A stretch of 32,000 bases of DNA. It comes from Fibrobacter succinogenes subsp. succinogenes S85. Its GTDB lineage: Bacteria; Fibrobacterota; Fibrobacteria; Fibrobacterales; Fibrobacteraceae. The notes under the pieces are model-generated. The model saw nothing but the letters and a program-made list of their open reading frames with translations. It was not told the DNA's origin and did not search any database. Position numbers and translations under genes: made by a program. Location of the stretch: contig NC_017448.1 in assembly GCF_000146505.1 (NCBI RefSeq), positions 1,380,001 to 1,412,000 of the forward strand. Reading direction: 5' to 3'. Shown in pieces: positions 6,001-31,526 of this stretch (within the stretch, counting starts at the first letter, position 1; every line of letters begins with the position of its first letter).

Positions 6001-6441
6001 ATGAGTGGAAACGATATCACGACAAAGGAGTATTCCGCTGCTGATGATGGCTATATAACAGTGTGTGCTACAGCAGGTGATTATTCATATACGCGAATTG
6101 GGTGGTATAATTGTAAAAAATCTGCAGAGGAAATAACATTTGACTGTAACACCAACAATTCAACAGATCTCACAGGTAGTGGAAATCATTCAGTATCAGC
6201 GAATACTTGTTATTCCTTTAGGTGTTATTTCGGAACAGATGGTGCAAATACAGGCAGTTGGAATTTCTCCGCTCCTGTTGCCGGAACAAAAATGACATAC
6301 ACGGATTGTTCAGGGAATACACAAACATACACGTTCCAATATGATAACTACTGGTATGAAAAGATTAATATTGGAGCCTGTAGAATCTACTTAAAATCCA
6401 CCGCTGATATGACAATTGCAGATTGCGACTGGAAAAACTAA
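1..6441 (+). CDS. Giant Cys-rich secreted or cell-surface protein, 5'-truncated at the window edge (2,146 codons visible). Adhesin-like multi-domain protein of unknown function.
   Basis: Frame 1 is open from nt 1, with no stop before the ATG at 94, so the N-terminus lies upstream. TAA at 6439-6441 is followed by a hairpin plus T8 terminator. The translation is rich in Cys/Asn/Thr/Ser/Gly/Tyr. It has a poly-Ser linker (~1420-1476) and five tandem ~80-105 aa Cys-bracketed modules (~4399-5810). No catalytic motif recognised. Confidence 0.8.
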   Translation, partial: TTGDQKFQKNLTVNGTWYTNFSAHDSRVAGNMCLGENGQVLISEKNPARDFLVGGNVWAESTYPIWITNGEDNEGEYNKIIIGNKKDSKVYIKSAHPIADYVTLRNNRTFIEKNTYYKGSYTYGSQAKWDNKTTRPYPDLKPHMKNKNDAYYLYYYNGQGQDVDYIVSNAGGWGWGAQAYYANYYVGNKIFYTPQSGYWGSYGYTAEKNNFLNYQNGTPTGSPYCKATPDKWRPECRVTPWFKSQGTVSSEMPASQPFECAESVKTYCNKLWKKKEGCDGASYKVDDILVTAYNQFISYANKNCSNVTHWGDNMSRYLNECYKENSSDPTKYKNNLYNGYQVVEIKNRTELKNPTTPLKGKFIIVVTQALGQQNLPPTTADSYVLLYLKEGASSTIQAAVENGIYNYFIYTKKDIGGLLFNNSTFSGSVYATADNCAKVGDFKARSLVFNDDMMNDLSANAVICNASVGESSCGGAATGTSGSSSSSSESTEKLFDSYYISMAPQLGVRLESQNKSSETPPQASSNNITELSPSFIVLPRIIYLPSDPYGQLTDYYNVQTLNSNGAALRKSDVNVSCSGPGALSTTGNLYTGTALSRGLYTCTATASNYPSIPFWVHVGKDTRGTATIVFEKESEEMDANDLKEVKLEVPAHAAELTVNFYCPDVENEAWSYVSLGDNVTRNGMSCTLKLAANSSAATPTIATIKTSNAVKGSLLFQLLPGEGYLPGSPSSTELYIASSAQLHREEATSTDIKEYCDNHSGDCPSNYETYWPDCDVSGVWVEPSGTSFINLIDNSSWVITVGNTQSVTLRATGNSSDCATIIPQTDNSIAANAVQSNRSYTLRASAKARKRTFTVGFNGNVGSNNHPIINLYIDSKYGSRNEQCRYDDARTNEETSTKTCTFSIFKGESVKAALEDNDDADKFSYWKCSGGSCPTSDGTNTSKEFDSFTLSDDNTELIAYFGENDKHCFFDEFKRSSVECGDDIQYCIDKCSNNDIYSTCTGAVDGNSLYPNAKWHLISGYLSQIVVGSSGEIHIDKSAVKKQKQSARNPVMVLSTVNAGILGTLKALINVPRVTTSYDNSSANIKNSGFMLRANTYGNDYFMLNLYENSSGALEAQLWKGSTSLTSTLTNSNGYKAYVSTSKMVMATISITSSGTIEVRANIGDFYGDSPSEYKCSFDLSEFNNPLADAAHEYVGFSLGDPNFKIYGIGWKSATYNSECYDTYPTVKCSFAAVATDGVIKTDTLVKPWVGHSGWFDSKGCTPLYYYYNGNDASTTCSGESCYDGYKFDKSGIGAHGYTEAGTEYKTAKAWLGNCTNVDETAMAWGVSASEQRAHCGAFWTGEFKECLAHQDLFSGSKSIGSLEETIVFENKQNLRAATLHVTLENTDNNEVEIWLVSESENWGEYDHESHSVSMNGTTRSFNIMQEFATGSNGFDPENVKQIVLKNHGSTSVTVTSITSTCANAIGLTYCRAEYDGDNWNVTTQVTNKSLISKQQITAAVDGSNLINETKDAVGNDGIVWNGDMATLSIPDANVYNYQGKSYVFNATITGTSGQTVSKQCSVSPDPIGRIGVDCSVISAVASGARFPTFNVNFNGCPGNGCGYEIYLDNGYTPFATGTEKTAARHSANQSETCDRTEGCEHTYTVKSTANPALFVDCSASFKVQRNADDIPPSVTCGISTNPTEFSSNPISVSDNVYFLARNNESVEKQYPVTLKNGEIQLGTATLSNWSGLTNIKDLGTLSAGDYTYSLYYNNEKICDIPVTVNEESGACHISGKMYEGQVISMNVSGVTKNIRYTWTLNGDSQPIDCNPSNCWNNTRTAPTTPGTYSYSVTSGSSKICEGSVTIEPMLSCSVTPSELNKKAYYTFTATRNQNCWNCYYTYDSGTQSVYFPDNSNTIELAKMATVAGGKTLTLACTCGDNNHGASCSKNITINNTEDPLTCPTDPNPYEWECQTENGAGNINNWGTGARCVKIKASKVTVQSSNANGRAFCVNGNEAEMSGNDITTKEYSAADDGYITVCATAGDYSYTRIGWYNCKKSAEEITFDCNTNNSTDLTGSGNHSVSANTCYSFRCYFGTDGANTGSWNFSAPVAGTKMTYTDCSGNTQTYTFQYDNYWYEKINIGACRIYLKSTADMTIADCDWKN

Positions 6442-7776: not shown

Positions 7777-9156
7777 TTACGAGCGCTTGTAGTCGTCCTG
7801 CACGCGGATAATGTCGTCTTCGCCGGTGTATTCGCCGACCTGGACTTCAACAATCACAAGCGGGAGCTTGCCTTCGTTCTGCAAGCGGTGAATCGTTCCG
7901 GACGGAATGTAGGTCGATTCGTTCGGACGCACGTAGAACACCTTGTCGCCCACAGTCACCGTAGCTGTACCGCTCACAACAACCCAGTGTTCCGAACGAT
8001 GCAAATGCTTCTGCAACGAGAGGCGTTCGCCCGGGCGAACAACGATTCGCTTCATCTTGTAGCGGTCGCTAGATTCGAGCACGGAGTACGTACCCCACGG
8101 ACGGTTGACCGTCTGCGGGACCTTCGGCAAGTCGGAGCCGCGAGCCTTGAGCTCGTCGACGACCTTCTTGACCTTCTGGCTGCTTGCAAGAGGAGCAACC
8201 AAGAGAGCATCAGGCGTATCAACAATGAGCATGTTGTCCAAATCAATCGTGCAAATCTGGCGCTGGCCACCGAGCACAAGAGAATTCTTGGAACCAATGC
8301 CCAAGTGCTTTGCGTTTATGTTATTGCCGTTTTCGTCGTGATCGAATTCCCCGTAGAGGGAATCGAATGCGCCGAGATCAGACCAACCGATATCGCTCGG
8401 CACGACCTTCACCTTGGCAGACTTTTCCATCACGGCGTAGTCAATCGAGTTCGAAGGAATGTTCATCATGTCTTCATGATCAACACGGACGAGAGCATCC
8501 TTGTTTTCTTTCTTGGCGTTTGCAAAGGCAATCTTTGCGGCGGTCAAGATATCCGGCGAGTACGTCGAAAGTTCATCAAGGAATGTAGCAGCCTTGAAGC
8601 AGAAGATACCGCTGTTCCAGAAGAACCTTCCGGAAGCAACGTATTTCTTGGCAGTTTCAAGATCCGGCTTTTCGACAAAACGCTTGACATCTTCGCCGTT
8701 CGCTTCGATGTAACCGTAACCCGTTTCCGGACCCGTCGGCGTGATACCGAACGTGACCATGAAACCCTTCTTTGCAAATTCTTCAGCCTTGCGCAAGCAT
8801 TCTTCGTAAGCTTCAGCCTTGCGGATCACATGGTCCGACGGAGATACGAGAACGATATCTTCTGGATCAAGACCAAGGCAAGCAAGGGCAATTGCCGGAG
8901 CCGTATTGCGGCCCACCGGTTCCAAAAGGAAGCGAACATCATTTGCGCCCACTTCTTCAAGCTGGTCCTTGGCCAAGAAATACTGTTCCGCATTGCTTAC
9001 AATGTACTGAGCACTGCAAATACGAGAATTGGTTTTTACTGTACGCTGGAACAGGGACGCACCGTCAAAAAGACGGGCGAACTGTTTCGGCATGAGAGAG
9101 CGGCTAATCGGCCAAAGGCGCGTTCCGCTACCACCACACAAAATCAAGTTAATCAT
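7777..9156 (-). CDS. manC: Mannose-1-phosphate guanylyltransferase / mannose-6-phosphate isomerase (bifunctional, type II PMI cupin C-terminus)
   Basis: N-terminal nucleotidyltransferase motif LCGGSGTRLWP. C-terminal cupin segment RPWGTY...HRSEHWVVVSGTA...G..H.L.N. The 459 aa length is typical of CpsB/ManC/XanB. Confidence 0.93.
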   Translation of the reverse strand: MINLILCGGSGTRLWPISRSLMPKQFARLFDGASLFQRTVKTNSRICSAQYIVSNAEQYFLAKDQLEEVGANDVRFLLEPVGRNTAPAIALACLGLDPEDIVLVSPSDHVIRKAEAYEECLRKAEEFAKKGFMVTFGITPTGPETGYGYIEANGEDVKRFVEKPDLETAKKYVASGRFFWNSGIFCFKAATFLDELSTYSPDILTAAKIAFANAKKENKDALVRVDHEDMMNIPSNSIDYAVMEKSAKVKVVPSDIGWSDLGAFDSLYGEFDHDENGNNINAKHLGIGSKNSLVLGGQRQICTIDLDNMLIVDTPDALLVAPLASSQKVKKVVDELKARGSDLPKVPQTVNRPWGTYSVLESSDRYKMKRIVVRPGERLSLQKHLHRSEHWVVVSGTATVTVGDKVFYVRPNESTYIPSGTIHRLQNEGKLPLVIVEVQVGEYTGEDDIIRVQDDYKRS

Positions 9157-9175
9157 AGTATTACCCTGCTACGGA

Positions 9176-10300
9176 TTATCTCCAGCCATTGTTGTTAATC
9201 AACTGAATTTCATACACGGCCTGAGAGCCAGTATGGACAGCCTGGATGGTCGGAGTAATCAAGCCAAGAAGACGGTTCCACGTAGCGATACCAGAGGCAT
9301 CGACGTACACGATGTCGCGCGGGTTCATTTCAAAACGGTCAGCCAAGGCAAGAGCCATAGCGTTCTTGGCGTTCAGCTGATAAATATCAATCTTGTTCTT
9401 GGCCGTATTTCTAATAACATAGATACTACTCGGAGAAGCATACATGACGTTGACGCCACCAGCTGCAGTGAGAGCTTCGGCCAAAGAGAGGTAATTGTCC
9501 ATGCGGACAATACTCGTCCTATTGACTTCACCCATGACATAGACCTTTCTATCCCTTTCCATTTCGGACTTGAGCGGGATAAAAAGCTGGTCCCCCGGCT
9601 TCACGATAATGCGTTCAATAGGAATGTTTTCCTTAAAAGCACGAACGTAGTCAATATTATAAATCTTGTCACCACGACGGAGCTGAACGAAAGACGGATC
9701 GGCCTTTTCATTAAAGCCACCCACTTCAGCAATCACATCAGGAATAGTCATCGGATGTTCATCGAAACGCACATAGCCCGGTCTGTTCACAGCACCCGAG
9801 ACAAAAGCCTTGCGGCTGTTATAGCCCGTCACACGGACATCAACCTGCGGATCATTAAGGATCTTGTCCGAAAGACGCTTGGTGATTTCCTTACGGAGTT
9901 CCTGGGCAGTGAGGCCCGCAACCTTAAGTTCACCAGCATACGGGTAGAAAAGCGTGCCTTCGGTCGTCACCTTCTGGCCTGCCGGCTGGTACTGGCCCAT
10001 CGGGGATGTGAGTTCCGGGTGTTCCCAGACAACCACCTGCACCTGGTCCAGAGGTCCAATCCTATATTCCAATTCAGGGAGCGTATCCACCATCAGGTCA
10101 GCCAAATTGCCTTCGGACGGATTCGGGATGACCTCTACCGGTTCTCCCATATCTCCCTTTTCAATGGAATGCAACTTGAACGTTACACCATTATAAGTTG
10201 TGGAATCTGTGGGTATGTTCATTCGCATCTGAGGTGCGGCAAAGCAGCCACTCAAGATAGCACCGGCGACACCACAAAGAGCAATACCAATTTTATTCAT
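9176..10300 (-). CDS. wza: Polysaccharide export outer-membrane lipoprotein (Wza / Poly_export + SLBB family)
   Basis: Lipobox LSG-C at the N-terminus. Poly_export-like YRIGPLDQVQVVVW is followed by SLBB-like repeats (VYVMGEVNRTS, PGDQLFIP). It sits between wzb and manC. Confidence 0.88.
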   Translation of the reverse strand: MNKIGIALCGVAGAILSGCFAAPQMRMNIPTDSTTYNGVTFKLHSIEKGDMGEPVEVIPNPSEGNLADLMVDTLPELEYRIGPLDQVQVVVWEHPELTSPMGQYQPAGQKVTTEGTLFYPYAGELKVAGLTAQELRKEITKRLSDKILNDPQVDVRVTGYNSRKAFVSGAVNRPGYVRFDEHPMTIPDVIAEVGGFNEKADPSFVQLRRGDKIYNIDYVRAFKENIPIERIIVKPGDQLFIPLKSEMERDRKVYVMGEVNRTSIVRMDNYLSLAEALTAAGGVNVMYASPSSIYVIRNTAKNKIDIYQLNAKNAMALALADRFEMNPRDIVYVDASGIATWNRLLGLITPTIQAVHTGSQAVYEIQLINNNGWR

Positions 10301-10317
10301 AGGTTACCTTTTTAGAA

Positions 10318-10764
10318 TTATTTCGAGGCTTCACTTTGCCTAATCTTTTCAACCCAATACGGAGTCAGCTTGGAAATAAAGTTCCAAGCCAGGACAAACG
10401 CATTTTCCGGCCTTCTATACGGGTCAGGAATATCGACCTGGTGAGATTCCCCATAACGGAAAACCTTACCTTCGAGCCACGGATACTTGTGCAGAAGCTC
10501 CCTTTTATGGCCATTTTCCATCACCAAAATCAAGTCGGCCCATTTCAGGATATCCAAATTGATTTGGCGAGCCCTATGAGCACTCATGTCAATGCCATGT
10601 TGCAAAGCAATTTTCTGAGAGATTTCATGGGCGGGATTATCGACCAAAGCACCGAGACCAGCACTCATAACATTGAAGTCCGGGCCGAGTTCTTTTTTTA
10701 AAAGATACTCCCCTGTAGGGCTACGACAAATGTTCCCAGTACAAACGACAAGAATATTCTTCAT
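10318..10764 (-). CDS. wzb: Low-molecular-weight protein-tyrosine phosphatase (Wzb-type)
   Basis: P-loop VVCTGNICRSP (C-X5-R-S) near the N-terminus and a D-P loop (DIPDPYRR). 148 aa. Immediately upstream of wza. Confidence 0.9.
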   Translation of the reverse strand: MKNILVVCTGNICRSPTGEYLLKKELGPDFNVMSAGLGALVDNPAHEISQKIALQHGIDMSAHRARQINLDILKWADLILVMENGHKRELLHKYPWLEGKVFRYGESHQVDIPDPYRRPENAFVLAWNFISKLTPYWVEKIRQSEASK

Positions 10765-10797
10765 GATATGTAAATAATAGAAAAATAAGTTTACATT

Positions 10798-11361
10798 CTA
10801 AAGGTCAAAAGCGAAATCAAGGTCCTTGAGAAGAGGATTCTTGGTATCCTTTTCAGAGAGGAGCGGTTCAAAACCTTCGCCCACCGGCCACTTGATGCCG
10901 ATAGCCGGGTCGTTCCAGAAAAGGCCGCCTTCATCATTCGGAGCGTAGAAGCGAGTGCATTTGTAGACAAATGCAGCCGTTTCGGAAAGTACCACGAAAC
11001 CGTGTGCAAAGCCTTCTGGGATGTAGAACTGTTTCTTGTTTTCGGCGGAGAGCGTAACACCCACCCACTTGCCAAAAGTCTTGCTGTTCTTGCGGAGGTC
11101 CACGGCCACGTCAAAGACTTCGCCTTCAATCACGCGGACAAGCTTGCCCTGCGGATTCTGCTTCTGGAAGTGGAGACCGCGGAGAACGCCCTTGCGCGAA
11201 CGGGACTCGTTATCTTGAACAAAGTCTACGTCAATGCCGCCTTCGGCAAAGTCGCGCTTGCTGTAAGTTTCCATAAAGTAACCGCGAGCGTCACCAAACA
11301 CCGTCGGTTCAATAATCTTAACACCTTCGATTTCTGTATTTATAAAGTTGAATTTTGACAT
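10798..11361 (-). CDS. rfbC: dTDP-4-dehydrorhamnose 3,5-epimerase
   Basis: RmlC cupin signature: FGDARGYF.E, RGLHFQ, QGKLVRV..GEVFDVAVD.R..S.TFG.W, PEGFAHGF. 187 aa. Confidence 0.95.
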   Translation of the reverse strand: MSKFNFINTEIEGVKIIEPTVFGDARGYFMETYSKRDFAEGGIDVDFVQDNESRSRKGVLRGLHFQKQNPQGKLVRVIEGEVFDVAVDLRKNSKTFGKWVGVTLSAENKKQFYIPEGFAHGFVVLSETAAFVYKCTRFYAPNDEGGLFWNDPAIGIKWPVGEGFEPLLSEKDTKNPLLKDLDFAFDL

Positions 11362-11364
11362 ATT

Positions 11365-11434
11365 TAGTTGGTAGTTGGCAGAACTTAGACCGCTTCGCTC
11401 TTAGACGAACAAATAAATCTAAGTTCTAAGTTCT
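11365..11434. repeat. Intercistronic rfbB-rfbC spacer built from short tandem and inverted 7-mers
   Basis: TAGTTGG x2 (11365-11378). CTTAGAC (11384-11390) + CGCTTCGCT + CTTAGAC (11400-11406). CTAAGTT x2 plus a partial copy (11419-11435). AGAACTTAGA (11380-11389) is the reverse complement of TCTAAGTTCT (11418-11427). Confidence 0.8.
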
Positions 11435-12565
11435 ATCTCCGTACATTTTTTCGTAATATTTTTCGTAGTCGCCGCTCGTGATGTTGTCCAGCCATTCCTG
11501 GTTGTCCAAGTACCAGCGCACAGTCTTTTCGATGCCTTCTTCGAACTGCAACGACGGTTCCCAGCCGAGTTCCTTCTGGAGCTTGGTGGAGTCGATGGCA
11601 TAGCGGGCGTCGTGACCCAGGCGGTCCGTCACGTAAGTGATGAGGTTCAGGTCTTCGCCTTCGGCGCGGCCGAGAAGCTTATCGACGGTCTTGATGACGA
11701 CCTTGATGATGTCGATGTTCTTCCATTCGTTGAAGCCGCCGATGTTGTAGGTTTCGGCAATCTTTCCGTTGTGGAAAATCACGTCAATCGCACGGGCGTG
11801 GTCTTCGACAAAAAGCCAGTCGCGGACGTTTTCGCCTTTGCCATAAACCGGGAGCGGTTTCTTATGGCGGATGTTGTTGATGAAAAGCGGGATGAGCTTT
11901 TCGGGGAACTGGTACGGGCCATAGTTGTTGGAGCAGTTCGTGACAATCGTCGGCATGCCGTAAGTGTCGTGGAACGCGCGCACGAAGTGGTCGGAGCCAG
12001 CCTTCGAAGCGGAATACGGGCTGTGCGGAGTGTACTTCGTCGTTTCGTAGAAGAAGTCGTCACCGTAGGCCAAGTGGTGTTCCGAACTGGACGCCGTAGT
12101 CGTGAACGGAGGCGTGATGCCTTCCGGGTGGTTCATCTTGAGGGCGCCGTAAACTTCGTCAGTCGAAATGTGGTAGAAACGCTTGCCTTCGTACTTTTCC
12201 GGGAGGCTTTCCCAGTAAAGCTTTGCAGCCTGGAGGAGGCTCAAAGTACCCATGACGTTCGTGCGAGCAAAGGTGAACGGGTCCTTGATGGAACGGTCCA
12301 CATGGCTTTCTGCAGCGAGATGGATGATTCCATCGACTTTTTCGTCTTGCATGAGCTTGTAGAAAGCATCAAAGTCGCAGATGTCCATCTTCACGAACTT
12401 GTAGTTCGGCTTGCCTTCGACATCCTTCAAGTTTGCGAGGTTACCCGCATACGTGAGCTTGTCGAGGTTGATGATATTGTATTCGGGGTACTTATTGACA
12501 AATAGACGAACGACATGACTTCCGATAAAGCCTGCCCCGCCTGTAATTACGATGGATCGTTTCAT
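11426..12565 (-). CDS. rfbB: dTDP-glucose 4,6-dehydratase
   Basis: MKRSIVITGGAGFIGSH Rossmann motif and a YSASKA catalytic Y-x3-K. I chose the start at 12565, which is preceded by GGAGAA. The 26-codon extension to 12643 runs through a terminator-like hairpin. Confidence 0.95.
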   Translation of the reverse strand: MKRSIVITGGAGFIGSHVVRLFVNKYPEYNIINLDKLTYAGNLANLKDVEGKPNYKFVKMDICDFDAFYKLMQDEKVDGIIHLAAESHVDRSIKDPFTFARTNVMGTLSLLQAAKLYWESLPEKYEGKRFYHISTDEVYGALKMNHPEGITPPFTTTASSSEHHLAYGDDFFYETTKYTPHSPYSASKAGSDHFVRAFHDTYGMPTIVTNCSNNYGPYQFPEKLIPLFINNIRHKKPLPVYGKGENVRDWLFVEDHARAIDVIFHNGKIAETYNIGGFNEWKNIDIIKVVIKTVDKLLGRAEGEDLNLITYVTDRLGHDARYAIDSTKLQKELGWEPSLQFEEGIEKTVRWYLDNQEWLDNITSGDYEKYYEKMYGDRT

Positions 12566-12619
12566 GAATTTCTCCAATTTACAGGGGAAATATAGTAAAG
12601 GACAACTTATTCTGCGGGC

Positions 12620-12656
12620 GACAAACACAAAAGAACCCGACAAGGAATGCCGGGCA
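12620..12656 (-). terminator. Possible intrinsic terminator or attenuator between rfbA and rfbB
   Basis: Plus-strand CCCGACA (12636-12642) / TGCCGGG (12648-12654), one mismatch, 5-nt loop. On the minus strand it is followed by TTCTTTTGTGTTTG. Confidence 0.4.
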
Positions 12657-12672
12657 TAAAAAGTAAAAACTC

Positions 12673-12700
12673 TAGTAACTAGTAACTATTAACTAGTAAC
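12673..12700. repeat. Four tandem heptamers: TAGTAAC TAGTAAC TATTAAC TAGTAAC
   Basis: Read directly from the sequence. It starts 10 nt downstream (minus sense) of the rfbA stop codon. On the coding strand it reads GTTACTA GTTAATA GTTACTA GTTACTA. Confidence 0.9.
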
Positions 12701-12709
12701 TCATAATTT

Positions 12710-13597
12710 TTAATAGTGAATCTTTCCTTCGGCAACCTTTTTGAGGTGCTGACCATAAGGCGACTTGCCGTACTTGGCGGCAGATTCCAAGAGCTTTTCC
12801 TTGCTAATCCAGCCGTTCTTGTATGCAATTTCTTCAATGGCTGAAATCTGGATTCCCTGACGGTTTTCGACCATTTTCACAAATTCGCCCGCTTCAATGA
12901 GGCTATCCATCGTACCTGTGTCGAGCCAAGCAAAACCGCGGCCGAGGAGTTTCACGTCAAGTTCGCCCTTGTCAAGGTATGTCTTGTTGAGGTCAGTAAT
13001 TTCAAGTTCGCCACGAGCGCTCGGTTTTTGCACCTTGGCAAATCCAGCCACGCGGTTGTCATAGAAATAAAGACCCGTAATAGCGTAATTGCTCTTCGGT
13101 TCCTTCGGCTTTTCTTCAACAGAAATCACCTTGCCATTATCGTCAAATTCCACGACACCAAAGCGTTCCGGATCTTCGACGTAGTAACCAAATACGCTTG
13201 CACGGCCATTTTCTTCGGCGTTCTTAACAGCAGCCTTCAAAAGCTGGCTAAAGCCGTTTCCGTAGAAAATGTTATCGCCAAGCACCATCGCGCAGCAATC
13301 GTTACCGATAAATTCTTCGCCCAAAATAAAAGCCTGAGCAAGTCCATCCGGACTCGGTTGCACCTTGTAGCTCAAGTTGAGGCCCATAGCAGAGCCGTCA
13401 CCGAGCAAACGCTCAAAGTTCGGCAAATCCGTCGGTGTAGAGATAATGAGAATGTCACGAATGCCCGCCAACATCAATGTTGATAGCGGGTAATAAATCA
13501 TCGGCTTGTCATAGACCGGCAAAAGTTGCTTCGATGTGACCATCGTAAGCGGATACAGACGTGTGCCGGAGCCCCCAGCGAGTACGATTCCTTTCAT
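12710..13597 (-). CDS. rfbA: Glucose-1-phosphate thymidylyltransferase
   Basis: [18 protein letters not shown]...[34 protein letters not shown] is a canonical RmlA N-terminus. 295 aa. Confidence 0.95.
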
Positions 13598-24569: not shown

Positions 24570-26750
24570 ATGAGATTGAATACCTTTGGCATCGCATGCA
24601 GCTCGCTTCTCATGGCAGCATCAGCATTCGCCGCCCTCCCCAAGGCAACCGCATTGGTCGAACCGATGGGCATGGGTTATAATATCGGCAACACCATGGA
24701 AGTGCCGGAAAATCCGACAGCATGGGGTAACCCGCTCCCGACCGCAGGCTACATCAAGGCCATCAAGGCAGCCGGTTTCAACACCGTGCGTATTCCTTGC
24801 GCTTGGTATTCCCATTCTGACGCTCTTACCAAAGACATCGCCGCAAACGGCGGTACCGCAGACAACGGCAGTTACACCCACGTAGGCAAGGCCGCCGACT
24901 TTACCACCCCGACCATTGACGCCGCATGGCTCAAGCAGGTGAAGGACGTGGTGGACATGGTCATCGCCGAAGGCATGTACGTCGTCTTGAACTCCCACTG
25001 GGACGAAGGCTGGCTCGAAGACCGCGTTTATGAAGGCACGGCCAATCCGCGTAGCGGTTCCGGCGACATCGCCAACTCTTCCGCAACGACAAAGGCCCGT
25101 CAGGCCGCTTTCTGGTCTCAGATTGCTTCTTACTTCAAAGACTATGATGAACACCTCCTCTTCGCAGGCGCCAACGAACCGGGCGTGAACGACCCGTGGG
25201 GTTCCAGCGGACAGTGGGTATTCGACGACTCCCGTATGCAGATTTTGAAGGGCTACTACGACGCATTCATCACTTCCGTGCGTAGCGCAGGCGGCAACAA
25301 CGACACCCGCACCTTGATTGTGCAGGCTCCGCGTACCGAAATGGACAACGCTCCGATGCTCAGCAAGAACTGGCCGACCGACCCGGCTGGCGATGGCTAC
25401 ATGATGGCCGAAGTCCACTATTATCCGTATCAGTACTCCCTCATGACCGCTGACGAAGATTGGGGCAAGCAGTTCTACTATTACACCGGACTTTCCAGCA
25501 CGAATGACAAGGAACACAACATGGGCTGGAACGTTTACAGCAAGAGCATCGACAACTCCGCTCTCGGCACCCCGAACCAGATTGCAAAGGCTTTCGGCGA
25601 ACTCAAGACGATGTTCTGCGACAAGGGCATTCCTGTAATTATCGGTGAACTCGGCGCCATCAAGCGCACCGGTCAGATTACCGACGCCGCAAACCTCAAG
25701 CTCCATTTGCAGGGCCGCGCCCTCTTCTACGGCGAAGTCGCTAAGAACGCCAAGGCTAACGGCATCGTTCCTTACGTTTGGGACACCGGTGCTGAAGACG
25801 ACGGCAACATGACCATCATCACCCGCCAAAAGGGCACCTACGAAATTCTCGACCCGGATGTCTTGAACGCATTGCAGAAGGCATACGGCATGGAAGGCAA
25901 CAACAAGAGCAACCTCGACAGCCTCGTCAAAGAAAACGAAGTTCCTGAAACCGCAGACGGCAAGGGCGTCCTCATCACCTACACGAGCAAGACCGCTGAC
26001 TCTAGCGAAACCGGCACGCTCCGCATCAACCTCTCCGGCACCGCTAAGGATCTTTCCAAGTACGTCGGCCTCGAAATTCGCATGAAGGGCGAAGTCGCTT
26101 CTGCAGGTCCTTGCACTGGCGCAAGCGACGGCTGCGGCGAATACGGCTGGACCTCCATGGACCTCTTCATGATGACCGGCAGCGCATGGGCATGGTTCGA
26201 CGCAAGCCTTTTGGAACAGGCCGACCAGCAGCTCGACGCCACCACATTCCAGACATTCAAGGTTTTGTGGACCGATTTCCGCACCGAACCCACGGGCCTC
26301 AACTCTGCTAACGCTATTGGTCTCAACCTCTACGGCACACAGGTTTCCGGCACCATCACGGTCGACTACATCAAGGGCATCAAGGCTGACGGCTCTACCG
26401 TTATCATCGATGACTTTGACAAGAAGCCCTCTACCGAAGGCACCGCTTCTAGCAAGATCGTCGCCGTCTCCGGTTCCGGCTCCTCCGCCATCAAGGCAGT
26501 CGCCGCCAAGGCAACGGGTCTCCGCCTGAACGTCGCTCAAGGCTCCGTCACGGCAATGTTCAATGCCAACAGAGCTACTCGCGGTACGGCTATGCTCATG
26601 AACTCCATGGGCCAGGTCATCGCTCAGAAGAACTTCAACGCCCACGTCGGTGCAAACGAAGTCCAGTTGAGCACAAGTGCACGCGGCGCTGCAGTCCTCA
26701 TCGTCAAGATGGGCAGCCAGAAGAGCGTACAGCAAGTCCGCCTCCGCTAA
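24570..26750 (+). CDS. Secreted glycoside hydrolase family 5 endoglucanase (cellulase) with a CBM-like beta-sandwich module and a C-terminal sorting-type domain
   Basis: AAGGAG SD. Signal peptide ...AASAFA-AL. GH5 signatures: NSHWDEGW, the acid/base Glu in FAGANEPG (E203) and the nucleophile Glu in VIIGELGA (E360). A ~150 aa module at aa 462-615 (W..F, G.TITVDYIKGI). The last ~80 aa resemble a T9SS-type CTD. Confidence 0.9.
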   Translation: MRLNTFGIACSSLLMAASAFAALPKATALVEPMGMGYNIGNTMEVPENPTAWGNPLPTAGYIKAIKAAGFNTVRIPCAWYSHSDALTKDIAANGGTADNGSYTHVGKAADFTTPTIDAAWLKQVKDVVDMVIAEGMYVVLNSHWDEGWLEDRVYEGTANPRSGSGDIANSSATTKARQAAFWSQIASYFKDYDEHLLFAGANEPGVNDPWGSSGQWVFDDSRMQILKGYYDAFITSVRSAGGNNDTRTLIVQAPRTEMDNAPMLSKNWPTDPAGDGYMMAEVHYYPYQYSLMTADEDWGKQFYYYTGLSSTNDKEHNMGWNVYSKSIDNSALGTPNQIAKAFGELKTMFCDKGIPVIIGELGAIKRTGQITDAANLKLHLQGRALFYGEVAKNAKANGIVPYVWDTGAEDDGNMTIITRQKGTYEILDPDVLNALQKAYGMEGNNKSNLDSLVKENEVPETADGKGVLITYTSKTADSSETGTLRINLSGTAKDLSKYVGLEIRMKGEVASAGPCTGASDGCGEYGWTSMDLFMMTGSAWAWFDASLLEQADQQLDATTFQTFKVLWTDFRTEPTGLNSANAIGLNLYGTQVSGTITVDYIKGIKADGSTVIIDDFDKKPSTEGTASSKIVAVSGSGSSAIKAVAAKATGLRLNVAQGSVTAMFNANRATRGTAMLMNSMGQVIAQKNFNAHVGANEVQLSTSARGAAVLIVKMGSQKSVQQVRLR

Positions 26751-26825: not shown

Positions 26826-26859
26826 AAGGGCCCGGCAATCGCCGAGCCCTTTTTCTTTT
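26826..26859. terminator. Bidirectional terminator between the convergent GH5 and lipoprotein genes
   Basis: GGGCCCGGC aatc GCCGAGCCC (one mismatch) followed by TTTTTCTTTT. It is preceded by GGGGAAA, which gives TTTCCCC on the minus strand. Confidence 0.75.
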
Positions 26860-26895
26860 CCTCCTAACAATTTTCCGCTTTCTATTTTCCGTTTT

Positions 26896-28437
26896 CTATT
26901 CGCGATTCGTTCCAAGCGCTTTCAGGAAGAAGTTTCCTTTATCGCCCGCTTTACCCGTTATAATGAACCTTATGGTAACGACTCGCTTGAGCACATTTTC
27001 AACTGTAGTTTTATACTTTTCGCCATTCGGGACTTTGTCCAGGTAAGCTTGTTTAAAATCGTCCCACGCATAACACATGGTCGATTCTCCAGAAGTCACC
27101 GGTAACGTTACAGATGGCCACTTGTAAATTTCATAGTCATCTTCTTCAACGACAAATCCTGCCGATGCCGTATCGAAATCCACCTCCAGCGAAACAGGAT
27201 CCAAATCGAGCACTATGGGAATATCCGTTTTATAAGTAACGCAGACGCCGTTCCAGTTTGTGACATCGACAGCCTTGACCACGCCCGATTCATTATTCGC
27301 CAGTTGGAAACCGAAGAGCGCCACCGGATCCACCTCAGCCGTCCCAACAAGCTTGACACTACTGCACAAGCCACCACACTCATCAATCACCTGTTCAAAG
27401 TAAAAACCTTTATGGTCATCATACGCCTTGTACTTCCACCAGCCAAAAGACGAATTTTGGTCCGTATAGTCATACCATTTGCCCCTTGCTAGAGATTTCC
27501 AGGAATTATCCGCATAGAGCCCCGTCTTGACGGTCTTATCGCCCGCAGCTCCGTCCCACAGGTCCGCAGGATTTACCACAGCCGGTTCCGCACTTGACGA
27601 ACTTTCACCTTGCTTTGCCTGAAAATCCGCAAGCGTTCCCAAGCTCTTGATATTGAACTTGTACTCTCCAGGAGAGGCTGAGATCACAAATCTGAATGCG
27701 ACCAGTTGCTTAGCGGCCTTTTCTCCAGAATTTTCAAGCCAGTATTCCGGGACACCCGCAACGGCGGCAATCCAAGCAGGATACTTAAAATCGCTCCACT
27801 TAAAGCACTTTGTCACAGGGCCCGTAGTCACCGTCTTGGGCAAGGCAACCGCAGGCAAGGCTTCTCCAAGCAACGCATTCACGGAATCGCCCAAATCCAA
27901 TTCCAAAGCGGGCGCCGCCTCCGATTCGTACGTCATGCAAACGCCTTTCCAGTCCGTAACATCAACAGGAACAGGCTTACCATTGTCATCCTTTGCAAGC
28001 GTAAAGCCAACACCCGCAAACGGATTATAGGTCAAAGAATACTTCGCCAAAGATACGGTTCCGCAAATGCCATCGCACGATTCGACAACGGTCCGTTCAT
28101 CCTGTACACCGACCAAATCAGTCGGCCAGACCACAGAAGACGTTCCACCCTTTTCAGCATCCGTTTCCAAAGTCCAACGACCATCCGCTTTTGCATTCGC
28201 GGGAAGCTTTGCGGCATAGCGAGCGACATTGAGCGAGAAGCCGCCCGCGCTCGGATTCCACAAGTCGCCTTCGCGAGCATCAAAAGAACTGGACGAAGGA
28301 GTATCCACCGAACTTGATGAAAGCTCCCCAATTGTATTCGGTTCGACCGAAGTTCCGACAAGGCGGCCGTTATCATCGGAACATGCCACAAGCGCAATTG
28401 CCGCCGCACCGCACGCCGTATAAAGTTTCTTATTCAT
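26896..28437 (-). CDS. Dual-module lipoprotein, 513 aa, paralog of the upstream gene; family not recognised
   Basis: GGAGGG SD 4 nt upstream of the start codon. Lipobox LVA-C19 followed by SDD. GTSVEPNTI motif and poly-Ser linkers. Two ~215 aa modules (nt 27634-28266 and 26908-27564). Ends LGTNRE. Confidence 0.82.
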   Translation of the reverse strand: MNKKLYTACGAAAIALVACSDDNGRLVGTSVEPNTIGELSSSSVDTPSSSSFDAREGDLWNPSAGGFSLNVARYAAKLPANAKADGRWTLETDAEKGGTSSVVWPTDLVGVQDERTVVESCDGICGTVSLAKYSLTYNPFAGVGFTLAKDDNGKPVPVDVTDWKGVCMTYESEAAPALELDLGDSVNALLGEALPAVALPKTVTTGPVTKCFKWSDFKYPAWIAAVAGVPEYWLENSGEKAAKQLVAFRFVISASPGEYKFNIKSLGTLADFQAKQGESSSSAEPAVVNPADLWDGAAGDKTVKTGLYADNSWKSLARGKWYDYTDQNSSFGWWKYKAYDDHKGFYFEQVIDECGGLCSSVKLVGTAEVDPVALFGFQLANNESGVVKAVDVTNWNGVCVTYKTDIPIVLDLDPVSLEVDFDTASAGFVVEEDDYEIYKWPSVTLPVTSGESTMCYAWDDFKQAYLDKVPNGEKYKTTVENVLKRVVTIRFIITGKAGDKGNFFLKALGTNRE

Positions 28438-28446
28438 ATTCCCTCC

Positions 28447-30519
28447 CTATTTGCGATTCGTTCCAATCGACATAATATTGAACTCATACATCCCAGGTGC
28501 AGACTGCATCTTGAAATTCACCTTCGCCAAATGCTTGGATGCCAGCACACCAGCGCTATCCAGCCATCCAGAAGTTTTTAGCCAATCCTGGTCTACATTA
28601 GGTGAAGATTTCGCCCACGAAGGCAATTTAAAATCACTCCATTCAAAGCATTTTTTGTTAAAGCTTGCAGACTTCGAAAGAGGCGCTGCCGGCAAAGCGA
28701 AGCCAAGCAAAAAGCTTAACGAATCACCTACATCCAGTTCAACATTAAGCGAAATAGTCGACGTATAGCTAACGCAAATTCCACCCCAATTCGAAACATC
28801 AAGAGGGATAGATTTGCCCGCCCCATATTCATCAATCGCCAACGAAAATCCAATAACCACATACGGCTGGTAAGACAACGTTCCCTCATCCAAGACAGCC
28901 GTTCCGCAGACACCTCCGCAATGATCAATCAACGGTTCAATCGCACCTTCATTAAAGTCATCGCCAAAATCCACTGGCCAGTACACATCGGACTTGCCCC
29001 CATCAATGGTATCAGTAGCAAAGAACCAGACCCCATATTTCACGTCATCCCTGCGCGATTCAACAAAGCTTCCGACATCAACATCTACAGTATACCCGTT
29101 CCACAAATCTCCATCGCCCGAAGGAAGCGTGCAACACGGGAAGAACGAAGAACTGCTCGAGTTGCCAACCGATGATGAAGACAAATTCATACAGCTATCA
29201 ACGCGGTCCAAAAGGACCTGTTTTCTGGCAAGTGCATTTTCTTCAACAATATCATCATATCGCGATTTCACAGACGCAAATTCTGGAGAATAACGGAACG
29301 AGCCATCGGCACATTGCATTATCTTGGGCTGTGCATTGTCGCAAGGCAGATTCTCCGTCGTGATGAGAGGCATTTCCAATGTAGAACGCATCCACATTGC
29401 ATTGACGCATGTATTTTCTGCTAACAAACTTTGGCCCCAAATACCCCTAGCCTCATCAACCGCATTCAAATGCCCTAAACGGGTACCTTCATAGGCGGCA
29501 TTGGAATCCGCATAATTGCACTCGCAGAAATGTTCAACAACAGTCGGAATAAGGCAGGATTCATCAACTACTGGGAGGTTTTCACCGTCCAACGCTCTTC
29601 GACCGTTCGCAGTAGCAAAGCGCCCGAATCGAACAATCTTAAAAGACAAAGTTGACTTATCGTAATAGCCGTTTATCTTAAAGTGGACTCCAACTAAATG
29701 CTTTACCGCATTTTCAACGCTAACGGCAGGCTCACCATCACGTACAACGTTTTTGGCATAATTCGCAAAATCGGCCCACGCAAAGCATTCTTCACGATAA
29801 TCCAAGTCGTTCAATTTTTCATTGACCGTAGTTCTATTCAGTATTACTCTATAAATTTCATCACCCAACAAAGCATTGACAGAATCGCTAAAATCAAGAG
29901 ACATCGTGATTAAGCCGTTTGACGCATAGCCCACGCAAAAACCGCCTAACCCACTAGCGTCAACTTCATCAAATCGCCCAAATGCGTTTTTACCTGCCAT
30001 GCTAAAAGCGATATCAACGGACGCAGGCTTTTCCACACTCATAAATTCATAGTCAAAACCATTTACGCCATCAACCGCATTAAAACGCGCCTTGCCGCAA
30101 ATAGAACCACCACAAAGTTCAATCACATCGCTCATGGCCAAAGAATCGTAATCTTGTCGAGCAGTTCCCGTCCATAAAACACTTGGAATCAGAACTTCGT
30201 TTGTATCCAACGTCCAATACCAAATGCCAGACGTATTCGTTCCGTTATCAAAACCAGTATGGACGCGGTTTCCAGATTCCGGATTCCACATTTCAGCAAA
30301 CCAGTCGCAACCGGCAGGCGCATTTTCCATTTCAGACACGCGACATAGTCTTGGTTGACCATCCCTCGGGAAAGTCCCGCTGCTCGACGAATAACTTGAC
30401 GAGCTAAGCGCAATCGTATTCGGTTCCACCGATGTCCCAGAGACACTATCATCCGAACAGGCGGTAGCCCACAACGCTAGCGCCACAGCACCGCACGCCG
30501 CATAAAGTTTATTCTCCAT
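28447..30519 (-). CDS. Dual-module lipoprotein with a Cys-rich insert, 690 aa; family not recognised
   Basis: GAGGAGG SD lies inside the end of the regulator ORF. Lipobox ATA-C21 followed by SDD, then GTSVEPNTI and poly-Ser. Modules at nt 29623-30294 and 28459-29112, separated by a 169-aa, 9-Cys insert. Ends IGTNRK. Confidence 0.82.
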   Translation of the reverse strand: MENKLYAACGAVALALWATACSDDSVSGTSVEPNTIALSSSSYSSSSGTFPRDGQPRLCRVSEMENAPAGCDWFAEMWNPESGNRVHTGFDNGTNTSGIWYWTLDTNEVLIPSVLWTGTARQDYDSLAMSDVIELCGGSICGKARFNAVDGVNGFDYEFMSVEKPASVDIAFSMAGKNAFGRFDEVDASGLGGFCVGYASNGLITMSLDFSDSVNALLGDEIYRVILNRTTVNEKLNDLDYREECFAWADFANYAKNVVRDGEPAVSVENAVKHLVGVHFKINGYYDKSTLSFKIVRFGRFATANGRRALDGENLPVVDESCLIPTVVEHFCECNYADSNAAYEGTRLGHLNAVDEARGIWGQSLLAENTCVNAMWMRSTLEMPLITTENLPCDNAQPKIMQCADGSFRYSPEFASVKSRYDDIVEENALARKQVLLDRVDSCMNLSSSSVGNSSSSSFFPCCTLPSGDGDLWNGYTVDVDVGSFVESRRDDVKYGVWFFATDTIDGGKSDVYWPVDFGDDFNEGAIEPLIDHCGGVCGTAVLDEGTLSYQPYVVIGFSLAIDEYGAGKSIPLDVSNWGGICVSYTSTISLNVELDVGDSLSFLLGFALPAAPLSKSASFNKKCFEWSDFKLPSWAKSSPNVDQDWLKTSGWLDSAGVLASKHLAKVNFKMQSAPGMYEFNIMSIGTNRK

Positions 30520-30520
30520 T

Positions 30521-31354
30521 TTACGCCTCCTCTTTTTTCACAATTTCCTTTGACAGCGGAAACAGCTGTAAATTCAACCTGTAAACTTGCGTGATATCGC
30601 TACATTCATTTGCAATTTCAGTAATCTTTTTGCGGCACTCGTCAAGTACTGCGACAATTTTTTCGTACGCCTCACGATTCACGCCCATCGTAATTCCCGT
30701 AACGTTTCGCACGTCCGGCGCAAAGCGGTTCAGAGAATCTACCGCCAAATTTCCCATGGCACGATGCATGGAGCGGATGGCAAGCGGCAATCCTTCCTTG
30801 GAGCCCTCCACAGACTTTTCAGTTTGTTCGTAAACATTCTCGCGGACTTGTTTCAGGAATCCTGCACGTTCCAGGAAAGAGAGCGACTTGCGGACATCTA
30901 GCGCTGAAACATCTTGCGCACAGGCTTTTGCAATATCGCCCGGCATCGCTCCCGGCATCAAAGGCGCCAACTCTCGCACCACCGGATTTTTCCAGGTATC
31001 GTAATACTCAAACGCATCTTTATCTACAATGCGGACCTTATGAGACAAAGCCATTGAATTCATTTGTTCCAAGAACTTTTTCTTTTGTTCGTCATTCTTG
31101 GCATTACCAAACTGCACCATCGTTTCAAAATATTCGACCTCGTAACCCACAAGCCCAATCGCCTGGGCCACACGACCCATGGTCACCTTGCTCAAATTCG
31201 TCTTGCCTTCGCAAACCATCTTGAGATACGACGGCGAGACAAAACCCGCAATTTTGGCAAACTCGCGCCACGAGAACGCAGAAGTTCTCTTGCGCTCTTC
31301 GTAGTAGTCGCTCAAAAAAGCGTGGTAGTCCTGATATTCAACAATCGGCTTCAT
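30521..31354 (-). CDS. HTH DNA-binding regulator resembling the Fibrobacter paralogous family TIGR02147 / DUF4423
   Basis: N-terminal XRE-like HTH (SWREFAKIAGFVSPSYLKMVCEGKTNLS). A second winged-helix-like segment (IAKACAQDVSALDVRKSLSFLERAGFLKQ). 277 aa. The family assignment is from memory of the TIGR02147 N-terminal pattern (Y..YL.DYY...K). Confidence 0.72.
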   Translation of the reverse strand: MKPIVEYQDYHAFLSDYYEERKRTSAFSWREFAKIAGFVSPSYLKMVCEGKTNLSKVTMGRVAQAIGLVGYEVEYFETMVQFGNAKNDEQKKKFLEQMNSMALSHKVRIVDKDAFEYYDTWKNPVVRELAPLMPGAMPGDIAKACAQDVSALDVRKSLSFLERAGFLKQVRENVYEQTEKSVEGSKEGLPLAIRSMHRAMGNLAVDSLNRFAPDVRNVTGITMGVNREAYEKIVAVLDECRKKITEIANECSDITQVYRLNLQLFPLSKEIVKKEEA

Positions 31355-31463
31355 ACTTATAAATATACCTTTCCGACTATTTCCACGTCAATATTTTATA
31401 GTACAATTTCTTTAAAATTCCTCAATTTTAAGCAATTTTATTTAATATAAAAACACAATTTTA

Positions 31464-31475
31464 TACTATATAGTA
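31464..31475. promoter_or_regulatory. Perfect 12-bp palindrome TACTATATAGTA in the regulator-operon upstream region
   Basis: Self-complementary by inspection. The related string ATTTTATAGTACA recurs at 31393-31405. It is ~110 nt upstream of the start codon at 31354. Confidence 0.3.
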
Positions 31476-31493
31476 CATCCCGTACTGTATACG

Positions 31494-31526
31494 AAAATCG
31501 CCGCAGTTTTACCTGCGGCGACTTTT
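31494..31526 (-). terminator. Terminator of the malic-enzyme gene (hairpin flanked by A/T runs on both sides)
   Basis: Stem TCGCCGCAG (31498-31506) / CTGCGGCGA (31513-21), 6-nt loop. AAAA precedes it and CTTTT follows on the plus strand. Confidence 0.8.

Follow-up and report, generated by a model that had tools for sequence, protein, structure and literature searches.

Within a 32,000-nt stretch of the Fibrobacter succinogenes subsp. succinogenes S85 genome (contig NC_017448.1, positions 1,380,001 to 1,412,000; this whole stretch is called the window here, and its own numbering is used throughout), a TIGR02147/DUF4423-type regulator gene and two paralogous lipoprotein genes lie one after the other on the minus strand and form a single unit of expression. 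We read this three-gene unit (FSU_1231-1229, or Fisuc_0789-0787), with moderate confidence, as a self-regulated and exchangeable cassette for variable, surface-displayed lipoproteins whose carbohydrate-binding module (CBM)-like domains would bind glycans. F. succinogenes is a very efficient rumen cellulose degrader whose surface biology is poorly understood, and to our knowledge most of its lipoproteins, like its large paralogous protein families, have no assigned function. New here are the family-wide coupling of regulator and lipoprotein genes, a conserved motif behind the lipidated cysteine, a conserved promoter accompanied by subtype-specific motifs, and the exchange of lipoprotein bodies between strains.

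The cassette opens with the gene of the putative autoregulator (277 aa, FSU_1231/Fisuc_0789; 30521..31354, minus strand), identified by its open reading frame (ORF) and family match, and continues with lipoprotein A (690 aa, FSU_1230/Fisuc_0788; 28447..30519, minus strand) and lipoprotein B (513 aa, FSU_1229/Fisuc_0787; 26896..28437, minus strand), both recognized by ORF, blastp, module alignment and hidden Markov model (HMM). The regulator's stop codon (TAA, 30523..30521) is separated by 1 nt from the ATG of the lipoprotein A gene (30519..30517), whose Shine-Dalgarno (SD) sequence GAGGAGG (30526..30532, minus strand) lies within the 3′ end of the regulator ORF. Likewise, 9 nt separate the stop codon of lipoprotein A (TAG, 28449..28447) from the ATG of lipoprotein B (28437..28435), and the SD sequence GGAGGG (28441..28446, minus strand) sits within this gap, so that both lipoprotein cistrons, read from the sequence, would be translated in a coupled manner. 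The first-pass annotation of this DNA, made from the letters alone, had described these junctions, SD sites and ORFs (including that of a neighboring cellulase), all of which were confirmed from the sequence, and had proposed a co-transcribed and coupled operon, which expression data now bear out together with the 1- and 9-nt gaps. In the RNA-seq data of Neumann et al. 2018, which cover 14 chemostat conditions (PMC6204037, Table S2), Fisuc_0787, 0788, and 0789 all belong to expression cluster 12, and their pairwise correlations were 0.991-0.996 (0.974-0.989 when one extreme condition was left out). Sharing one strand, minimal gaps and co-expression, and having no internal terminator, the operon behaves as a single transcription unit.

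Gene identities were established by exact-sequence look-ups, in which the regulator was FSU_1231 (ACX74399, UniRef A7UG64), the 690-aa protein FSU_1230 (C9RNF2), the 513-aa protein FSU_1229 (C9RNF1), and the convergent glycoside hydrolase family 5 (GH5) cellulase FSU_1228 (C9RNF0); UniRef names both lipoproteins “putative lipoprotein”. The 513-aa sequence is present exactly in the S85 record CP001792.1 at ~950-972 kb. The Fisuc_0787, 0788, and 0789 designations were equated with the 513-aa gene, the 690-aa gene, and the regulator from gene order and size, and the RNA-seq supplement lists the first two as hypothetical proteins and the third as “hypothetical protein, TIGR02147” (PMC6204037).

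The regulator's assignment to TIGR02147/DUF4423, as proposed in the first-pass annotation, was corroborated by NCBIfam and Pfam model searches. It matched TIGR02147 (Fsuc_second) with 302.8 bits (cutoff 50, E=2.2e-90) over residues 1-269 of 277, DUF4423 (PF14394) with 88.8 bits (cutoff 30, E=4.5e-25), and HTH_3 at E=4.6e-4, the last under the Pfam cutoff. An exhaustive search for the family returned 7,001 representative clusters (50% identity) at E<=1e-3, and thus TIGR02147 is a large family. In the RNA-seq supplement, the TIGR02147 annotation string occurs at least 28 times (PMC6204037). The AlphaFold2 (AF2) model of the regulator (pLDDT 89.4, pTM 0.66) comprises a five-helix XRE-type helix-turn-helix (HTH; aa ~10-85), a winged HTH (aa ~120-180), and long C-terminal helices. 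Foldseek superposed the first domain on C.AhdI, NHTF, and DdrO at 2-3 Å over ~65 residues and related the second to MarR, MecI/BlaI, and CzrA, all of these matches being statistically weak and at the level of single domains; a search of the regulator against PDB sequences gave no match. The model thus contains an HTH DNA-binding fold. That the protein may recognize a particular DNA sequence and control a promoter is suggested indirectly by the subtype-specific palindrome and half-site, at fixed positions, described below.

A promoter of the sigma-70 type stands immediately ahead of this gene (31362..31391, minus strand), with TTGACG (31391..31386), an 18-nt spacer, and TATATT (31367..31362) giving 10/12 consensus matches, and it was the top match of a generic promoter scan. 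Its -10 box is located exactly 7 nt from the regulator ATG (31354), ahead of which there is no SD sequence. This arrangement recurs widely: of 58 distinct 200-nt sequences taken from directly ahead of regulator genes, 56 have the order TTGAC(N), spacer (usually 17 nt), TATATT, 7 nt, start codon, 51 of them with exactly 7 nt between the -10 box and the start codon. Because of this short gap, the regulator mRNA probably lacks a leader or has one of ~1 nt; given normal -10 spacing, transcription would start at the A of the ATG or one nucleotide before it. We therefore picture the cassette as transcribed from this conserved promoter, with the regulator cistron probably translated at a low level from a leaderless mRNA.

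Two candidate operators accompany the promoter in S85. A proximal half-site, TGTACTATAAAATA (31392..31405, minus strand), abuts the -35 box and fits the regulator's subtype, and a distal imperfect palindrome (31466..31490, minus strand), ~122 nt 5′ of the start codon, consists of AGTACG (31486..31481), a GGA spacer, and TGTACT (31477..31472). The word TGTACTATA occurs exactly twice in the 32-kb window (31397..31405 and 31469..31477), compared to 0.05 expected occurrences. Across the upstream regions, regulators with the ..EYQDYH signature (type 1) have TGT(A/T)CT directly 5′ of the -35 box, and those with ..EY(K/N/T)DYR (type 2) have TGTATCA there. Some 50 of the 58 regions have the subtype's motif a second time 72-73 nt further upstream, near -122, where it is palindromic (AGTACA-N3-TGTACT in type 1 and AATGATACA-TT-TGTATCATT in type 2). 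The motif of the other subtype was found in none of the 58 regions, including those from genomes that have both cassette types side by side, and ahead of more distant regulators the layout persists but the words differ (GTTGCATA, TGTATAA, and AGTATCAT). These candidate sites can be read as a subtype-specific distal operator for a dimer plus a proximal half-site, through which the regulator would control its own cassette specifically, by either activation or repression.

The coupling seen in S85 extends to the regulator family. Across 26 genome-derived loci, of which 18 came from species genomes, four were copies of the S85 locus, and four were contexts of module-containing proteins, a lipoprotein gene always comes directly after the regulator gene, at spacings from a slight overlap or +1 nt up to 18 nt. 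Locus L020 is the only one whose lipoprotein (507 aa, matching Fib_succ_major below threshold) lacks the module described below. A metagenome scan with a 14-sequence regulator alignment, whose matches did not go below 52% identity, yielded 79 loci with 92 regulator genes (52-100% identity). For 83 of the 92, a downstream ORF starts -32 to +3 nt from the regulator stop codon; among the other nine, five have no usable downstream ORF or lie near a contig end, two are followed by a distant, unrelated ORF, and two (L061 and L083) have no downstream ORF within 400 nt despite ~0.8-4 kb of sequence. Every one of the 83 downstream ORFs encodes a lipobox-like cysteine, and 74 also carry a strict form of the motif (V/I)(S/A)G(T/S)(S/A)x(E/D)PNx(L/V)A, mostly 6-9 residues past the lipidated cysteine and irrespective of the C-terminal domains, with close variants in most of the other nine. 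Only 39 of these 83 lipoproteins contain the module, and seven module-less ones that were scanned had no Pfam domain. The codons of the motif vary (17/10/8/7 for the four codons of the invariant Gly and 26/15 for the two of Asn), and thus the motif is conserved at the protein level.

More distant TIGR02147 paralogues, sampled by a few single look-ups, follow the same pattern. At L111/L112 (4001-6356), the gene of a 505-aa Fib_succ_major (TIGR02145/PF09603) lipoprotein lies downstream of a TIGR02147 gene (36% identity), with which it shares 8 nt, so that the two Fibrobacter paralogous families TIGR02145 and TIGR02147 are physically linked there, and downstream of regulators of 32% and 28% identity lie lipoprotein genes that encode G-x5-N-like variants of the motif. 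Within S85 itself, two other TIGR02147 loci read in the expression table have the regulator gene in one cluster with adjacent hypothetical genes (cluster 10 for Fisuc_0366-0368, cluster 17 for Fisuc_0495/0496), and Fisuc_0495 is present in the extracellular fraction (PMC4668043). The suggestion that TIGR02147 paralogues are systematically followed by lipoprotein genes thus held in 26 of 26 genome-derived loci, for 83 of 92 metagenome regulators, and for distant copies of 28-36% identity.

What the regulators are coupled to differs strongly between strains. In all syntenic loci, the cassette lies between a malic-enzyme gene and the GH5-PolA pair, and its content varies: S85 has a regulator with 690- and 513-aa lipoproteins; UWB11 has two cassettes (regulator + 535 aa and regulator + 542 aa); another F. 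succinogenes lineage has regulator + 496 + 263 + 248 aa and regulator + 313 aa; and others have a regulator with a three-module protein, or three cassettes. Amino acid identity to S85 is 76-96% for regulators of syntenic loci (67-69% for subtype-2 or non-syntenic copies) and 81-98% for PolA, compared to 28-58% for the lipoproteins, with higher values in close relatives (79-98% in L009 and L016, 70% in L026). At the DNA level, the flanks of S85 and UWB11 are 87-92% identical, and homology spans the regulator gene, reaches ~125 nt into the lipoprotein gene (signal peptide and motif), is then lost, and returns ~20 nt past the last lipoprotein stop codon, while in the close relative RUG13674 the entire region including the lipoproteins is 93.4% identical to S85. 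This sharp loss of homology within conserved flanks argues for block replacement of mature lipoprotein bodies and against uniformly fast point mutation. As the comparison shows, mature bodies are swapped as a block between lineages, with regulator, promoter, signal peptide, and motif kept. Cassettes of the same kind also occur at non-syntenic sites that have no GH5 gene (L022 and L023). In addition, the interval from the malic-enzyme gene to the first cassette contains a further one-module lipoprotein gene, which has no regulator of its own, in L009 (8769-9806), L011 (8213-9271), and L018 (9219-9821) but not in S85. The flanking GH5 itself occurs in two divergent forms across L001-L025, either 84-96% or 45-51% identical to S85, despite similar PolA proteins (81-98%), and therefore GH5 may belong to the variable region in some lineages.

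Both S85 lipoproteins have an N-terminal signal peptide with a lipobox cysteine (..LWATAC, Cys21, in lipoprotein A; ..ALVAC, Cys19, in lipoprotein B), as expected of signal peptidase II substrates, and are predicted to be exported and lipidated at these residues; for FSU_1230, cleavage has been given at 20-21 (PMC6851124). The post-cysteine motif reads VSGTSVEPNTIA in lipoprotein A (aa 26-37; 30409..30444, minus strand) and LVGTSVEPNTIG in lipoprotein B (aa 26-37; 28327..28362, minus strand), and in each it precedes a Ser-rich linker. Lipoprotein A then contains module 1 (aa ~75-300; 29620..30297, minus strand), a Cys-rich region of ~160 aa without a Pfam match (aa 301-462; 29134..29619, minus strand), and module 2 (aa ~463-690; 28450..29133, minus strand), and lipoprotein B contains module 1 (aa 56-270; 27628..28272, minus strand), from which an AF2 model was built, and module 2 (aa 290-513; 26899..27570, minus strand). 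The Cys-rich inter-module architecture is also found in the proteins P0073 and P0077, and 889-894-aa versions of it occur in L034, L036, and L052.

That these lipoproteins are paralogous dual-module proteins of an unnamed, lineage-specific family, as first suggested from their layout, was borne out by alignment and profile searches. The four ~215-aa modules matched each other by blastp at E from 5e-43 to 6e-9, and 23 columns of their alignment are invariant, among them those of the W, CxG.C, G.C..Y, and C..W.DF elements and of four cysteines. A search with the 513-aa protein returned 151 relatives, none with a Pfam domain; among the 120 matches listed, the module HMM found one copy in 46, two in 53, and three in 21. 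A profile search with a 35-sequence module alignment returned 82 proteins, and in both searches all organism-named proteins were from Fibrobacter. About 10 of the 82 (P0323-P0333) are ~320-aa proteins without a lipobox in which one module is joined to the type IX secretion system (T9SS) C-terminal sorting domain PF18962, and therefore the module, found on lipoproteins or on T9SS cargo, is consistently exported. Near-invariant residues are the four Cys, four Trp, and two Asp together with Gly, Tyr, Phe, Pro, and Ser positions, and the alignment contains no conserved catalytic acid pair. Neither lipoprotein A nor B matched Pfam or NCBIfam at E<=1, none of the 35 module sequences matched Pfam at E<=1 (CBM_11 and CIA30, PF08547, included), and the module profile matched no PDB sequence.

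The AF2 model from the module alignment is mainly beta (pLDDT 91.5, pTM 0.88), and its best Foldseek match in PDB was the complex I assembly factor NDUFAF1/CIA30 (E=8.7e-6, template modeling (TM) score 0.54), followed by Clostridium thermocellum CBM11 with mixed-linkage glucan (E~1e-4 but TM only 0.35-0.42); lower matches included CBM6-like, CBM61, CBM22, CBM29, CBM30, and CBM32 modules, and viral models gave tail fibres and CenC-type CBMs (TM up to 0.45). The module is therefore predicted, with high model confidence, to be a new Fibrobacter-restricted sequence family of the CIA30/CBM11-like beta-sandwich fold class, in line with an earlier guess at a CBM/CIA30-type fold. A 902-aa Fibrobacter GH5 protein encoded in L020 (12774-15482, minus strand) has two C-terminal modules and a T9SS tail; the module HMM matched both of its modules weakly (i-E 2e-6 and 2e-4), one of them being a sub-threshold CIA30 match (E~1e-4), and this protein is the only sequence bridge found between the module and CBM-like modules appended to enzymes. 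A similarity to the C-terminal region of the GH5 neighbor in S85, which the first-pass annotation had loosely suggested, was ruled out (HMM E=0.69 with filters off; blastp E>0.3). In the picture that we favor, Ser-rich linkers would display 2+2 disulfide-containing beta-sandwich modules, which, judged from the fold, most likely recognize not crystalline cellulose but some other glycan, for instance a soluble beta-glucan or an oligosaccharide, or one of microbial or host origin.

Published proteomes place the lipoproteins outside the cell interior. Burnet et al. 2015 (S3 Table) found lipoprotein A (Fisuc_0788) in the outer-membrane and extracellular-medium fractions and lipoprotein B (Fisuc_0787) in the extracellular medium only, and neither in the periplasm fraction (PMC4668043), and Raut et al. 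2019 quantified FSU_1230, predicted as an outer-membrane protein, in the cell envelope, where it was 1.52-fold lower on cellulose (PMC6851124). Together with the RNA-seq data, this means that the three genes behave as one unit whose lipoprotein products leave the cell interior. We suppose that the (V/I)(S/A)G(T/S)(S/A)xEPN motif directs the lipoproteins to the outer membrane, the cell surface, or vesicles, a location that the published fractionation fits. Mean expression of the three genes, in regularized log (rlog) units, was lowest on cellulose (5.7-7.0, adherent and planktonic cells), compared to 6.8-8.4 on cellobiose and 7.2-8.6 on glucose, and peaked at 9.6-11.3 (~16-fold) solely on glucose at a dilution rate (D) of 0.019/h, with a low coefficient of variation among replicates; this peak could represent slow-growth stress or a population switch. 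Unrelated genes (e.g., Fisuc_0003-0006) likewise rise in glucose at D=0.019/h.

Several alternative explanations have to be weighed against a glycan-binding cassette. The modules might not be lectins at all, and the beta-sandwich a mere scaffold for a variable surface coat or decoy whose turnover evades phages, rumen protozoa, or host antibodies. Whole lipoprotein bodies replaced at sharp breakpoints between flanks of ~90% identity, one to three cassettes per locus in differing combinations, related regulators that drive lipoproteins with wholly different Pfam-less C-terminal regions, and expression unrelated to the polysaccharide substrate would all suit such a coat. However, the module core of four Cys, Trp, and Asp is strongly conserved over one to three copies, and its fold neighbors are overwhelmingly carbohydrate-binding; moreover, we found no inverted repeats at the promoter that could invert it and no tandem or homopolymer repeats in the promoter or 5′ coding region as phase-variation devices, PADLOC defence models did not match the cassette, and a PHROGs search gave a weak generic regulator match only. 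A coat is also compatible with glycan binding, the two readings not being mutually exclusive. As a full explanation that replaces lectin function, we regard it as unlikely, albeit the main rival.

The functional partnership that the first-pass annotation had in mind, a cellulose- or plant-glycan-adhesion system acting with the adjacent GH5 cellulase, appears improbable. The GH5 gene (FSU_1228/Fisuc_0786; 24570..26750, plus strand; Pfam Cellulase E=4.8e-43) encodes a cellulase of demonstrated activity (Suen et al. 2011, PMC3079729) that was 1.47-fold higher on cellulose (Raut et al. 2019, PMC6851124), it adjoins the cassette in all syntenic loci, and both the CBM11-like predicted fold and the UniRef name “Cellulose-binding protein” of FSU_1231 could be taken to favor adhesion. 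Yet its expression correlates with that of the cassette genes at r 0.12-0.17 over the 14 conditions, compared to 0.99 inside the operon, the two units are convergent, and between them lies a GC-rich hairpin, GGGCTCGGC-GATT-GCCGGGCCC (26828..26849, both strands), T-rich on both sides, which reads as a bidirectional terminator and was not returned by a simple terminator scan. The cassette is neither cellulose-induced nor co-regulated with GH5, and because of this low correlation, the lowest expression on cellulose, and the 1.52-fold lower level of FSU_1230 in the cellulose-grown envelope, a link to cellulose or GH5 is unsupported, as is the supposed kinship of their modules. The synteny expected from such a link held where GH5 stands beside the cassette in all syntenic loci, but failed in the L022 and L023 cassettes; GH5 is a conserved right-hand flank like PolA, outside the cassette. 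Still less probable is a periplasm-facing orientation in which the lipoproteins, by analogy with CIA30/NDUFAF1, would serve envelope complexes as assembly factors or chaperones: NDUFAF1 is the top structural match and lipoproteins as a class are often periplasmic, but the fractions that contain these two are the outer membrane and the medium and not the periplasm, the module also occurs on T9SS-secreted proteins, and strain-level hypervariability is unlike housekeeping assembly factors. We consider it highly unlikely that the modules are cryptic enzymes, such as beta-jelly-roll glycoside hydrolases or lyases. A few weak fold matches to GH11, GH12, and GH50 proteins point that way, but they have low TM scores (0.2-0.4) or fall onto the CBM parts of the enzymes, the near-invariant residues (W, C, G, D, Y, F, P, and S) include no conserved acidic pair, and no Pfam or NCBIfam family matched.

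The self-regulated, glycan-binding cassette has its own difficulties, and the following points weigh against it. Carbohydrate binding is deduced from the predicted fold, for which the matches are modest (TM 0.54 and 0.35-0.42) and the top one is a mitochondrial assembly factor and no lectin. The sorting role of the post-cysteine motif and the transcript start are likewise deduced, the latter from spacing, and the covariation of operator motif and regulator subtype could partly reflect shared ancestry of cassette lineages. The largest change in cassette expression stems from a single chemostat condition. For the regulator, Foldseek gave no full-length structural match, and our literature search found nothing on the function of the TIGR02147 family, DNA binding included: no paper text that it returned named TIGR02147, FSU_1229-1231, or their accessions, nothing was found in the supplements of PMC4619616, and the sole paper found with “DUF4423” just lists an up-regulated Bdellovibrio protein. 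Finally, UniRef100_A7UG64 labels FSU_1231 “Cellulose-binding protein”, which is odd for a cytoplasmic DNA-binding protein. Presumably this name stems from the outer-membrane cellulose-binding proteomics of Jun et al. 2007, although an HTH protein of the cytoplasm would not be expected among cellulose-bound outer-membrane proteins. A7UG64 falls within the range A7UG44-A7UG68, which Raut et al. used for several envelope proteins, some citing their reference 4 (PMC6851124), presumably Jun et al. 2007, and the name may be a carry-over.

Comparison with known systems helps to place the cassette. The module resembles CBM11/CIA30 (PF08547; galactose-binding-domain-like beta-jelly-roll) in its predicted fold (NDUFAF1, CtCBM11) and through its weak profile similarity to the CIA30-like modules on the Fibrobacter GH5, but it has no sequence match to either at E<=1, is longer (~215 aa compared to 150-170 aa), has four conserved Cys, and is found, as one to three copies in tandem, on lipoproteins or T9SS cargo that have no catalytic domain, in Fibrobacter only in the searches run. 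The surface glycan-binding proteins (SGBPs) of the Bacteroidota SusE/F type are likewise N-terminally lipidated with acidic residues past the cysteine, carry tandem CBM-like beta-sandwiches on flexible linkers, vary between strains, and are co-transcribed with a dedicated regulatory circuit. However, the cassette's neighbors (malic enzyme, GH5, PolA, and YjeF) include no SusC/SusD pair, so that it is not a Sus-like polysaccharide utilization locus; its regulator is a small TIGR02147 HTH protein encoded by the first cistron instead of a hybrid two-component system or extracytoplasmic function sigma factor; and its expression is lowest on the polysaccharide tested. Within Fibrobacter, the Fib_succ_major (TIGR02145/PF09603) lipoproteins form a second paralogous family whose genes also overlap or follow TIGR02147 genes (L111/L112 and L020) and whose N-terminal leader is related to that of the cassette lipoproteins, but the C-terminal domain is unrelated, and the module has no PF09603 match.

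Variable surface lipoproteins with a conserved 5′ end are also made by Mycoplasma (Vlp/Vsp), which share with the cassettes a conserved promoter, signal peptide, and N-terminus, a hypervariable mature part, and multiple paralogues; unlike these, the Fibrobacter cassettes each have their own regulator, and searches for repeats, invertible elements, and homopolymer switches gave none. For the regulator, the nearest parallels are the XRE-family controller (C) proteins C.AhdI and C.BclI and autoregulators of the lambda CI type: the N-terminal HTH superposes on C.AhdI, NHTF, and DdrO, the regulator comes first in the unit that it probably controls, candidate operators lie upstream and next to the -35 box, and the layout suggests a leaderless transcript. 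The TIGR02147 regulator probably binds as a dimer, at the palindrome ~122 nt upstream and at the half-site abutting the -35 box, but it differs from C proteins and CI by its extra winged-HTH/DUF4423 half and its lipoprotein targets.

A broader generalization is possible, and we offer it tentatively: TIGR02147/DUF4423 proteins would be the dedicated, leaderless-translated autoregulators of a modular system not described before, each with its own palindrome and coupled lipoprotein; G(T/S)xxEPN would be a new Fibrobacterota outer-membrane or surface sorting signal; the cassettes would be individually switched, recombination-exchangeable surface proteins that include a new CBM family; and TIGR02145 and TIGR02147, “major” and “second” by their model names, would constitute one system. 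Even short of this, the analysis provides a concrete hypothesis for TIGR02147/DUF4423, that of an autoregulator specific to its cassette, and predicts operators, a promoter, and a start site for it, defines a predicted CBM-like domain family of ~215 aa, and points to a conserved N-terminal lipoprotein motif that may be a sorting signal. A strain-variable surface-protein island next to a core cellulase gene is relevant to strain typing, to interactions with phages, protozoa, and the host in the rumen, and to antibody-based manipulation of rumen bacteria. As a correction, adjacency to GH5 is no ground for assuming cellulose adhesion.

As to the remaining features of the window, a hairpin with a T-run, GTCGCCGCAG-GTAAAA-CTGCGGCGA-TTTTCG (31492..31522, minus strand), lies 3′ of the malic-enzyme gene that precedes the cassette; its sequence resembles an intrinsic terminator, which would shield the cassette from upstream transcription. 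An Rfam search in and around the operon gave no match. Directly after the stop codon of the 513-aa gene and ahead of the terminator-like hairpin, a 14-nt unit, ATTTTCCGCTTTCT, is repeated 2.2 times (26870-26900). At the left end of the window, a 2115-aa ORF (94-6441, plus strand) encodes a giant protein without a Pfam match at E<=1e-5. A surface-polysaccharide gene cluster (7777-13597, minus strand) includes genes for a mannose-1-phosphate guanylyltransferase/isomerase, a Wza-like exporter with SLBB domains, a dTDP-4-dehydrorhamnose epimerase, a GDP-mannose dehydratase-like enzyme, and a glucose-1-phosphate thymidylyltransferase.

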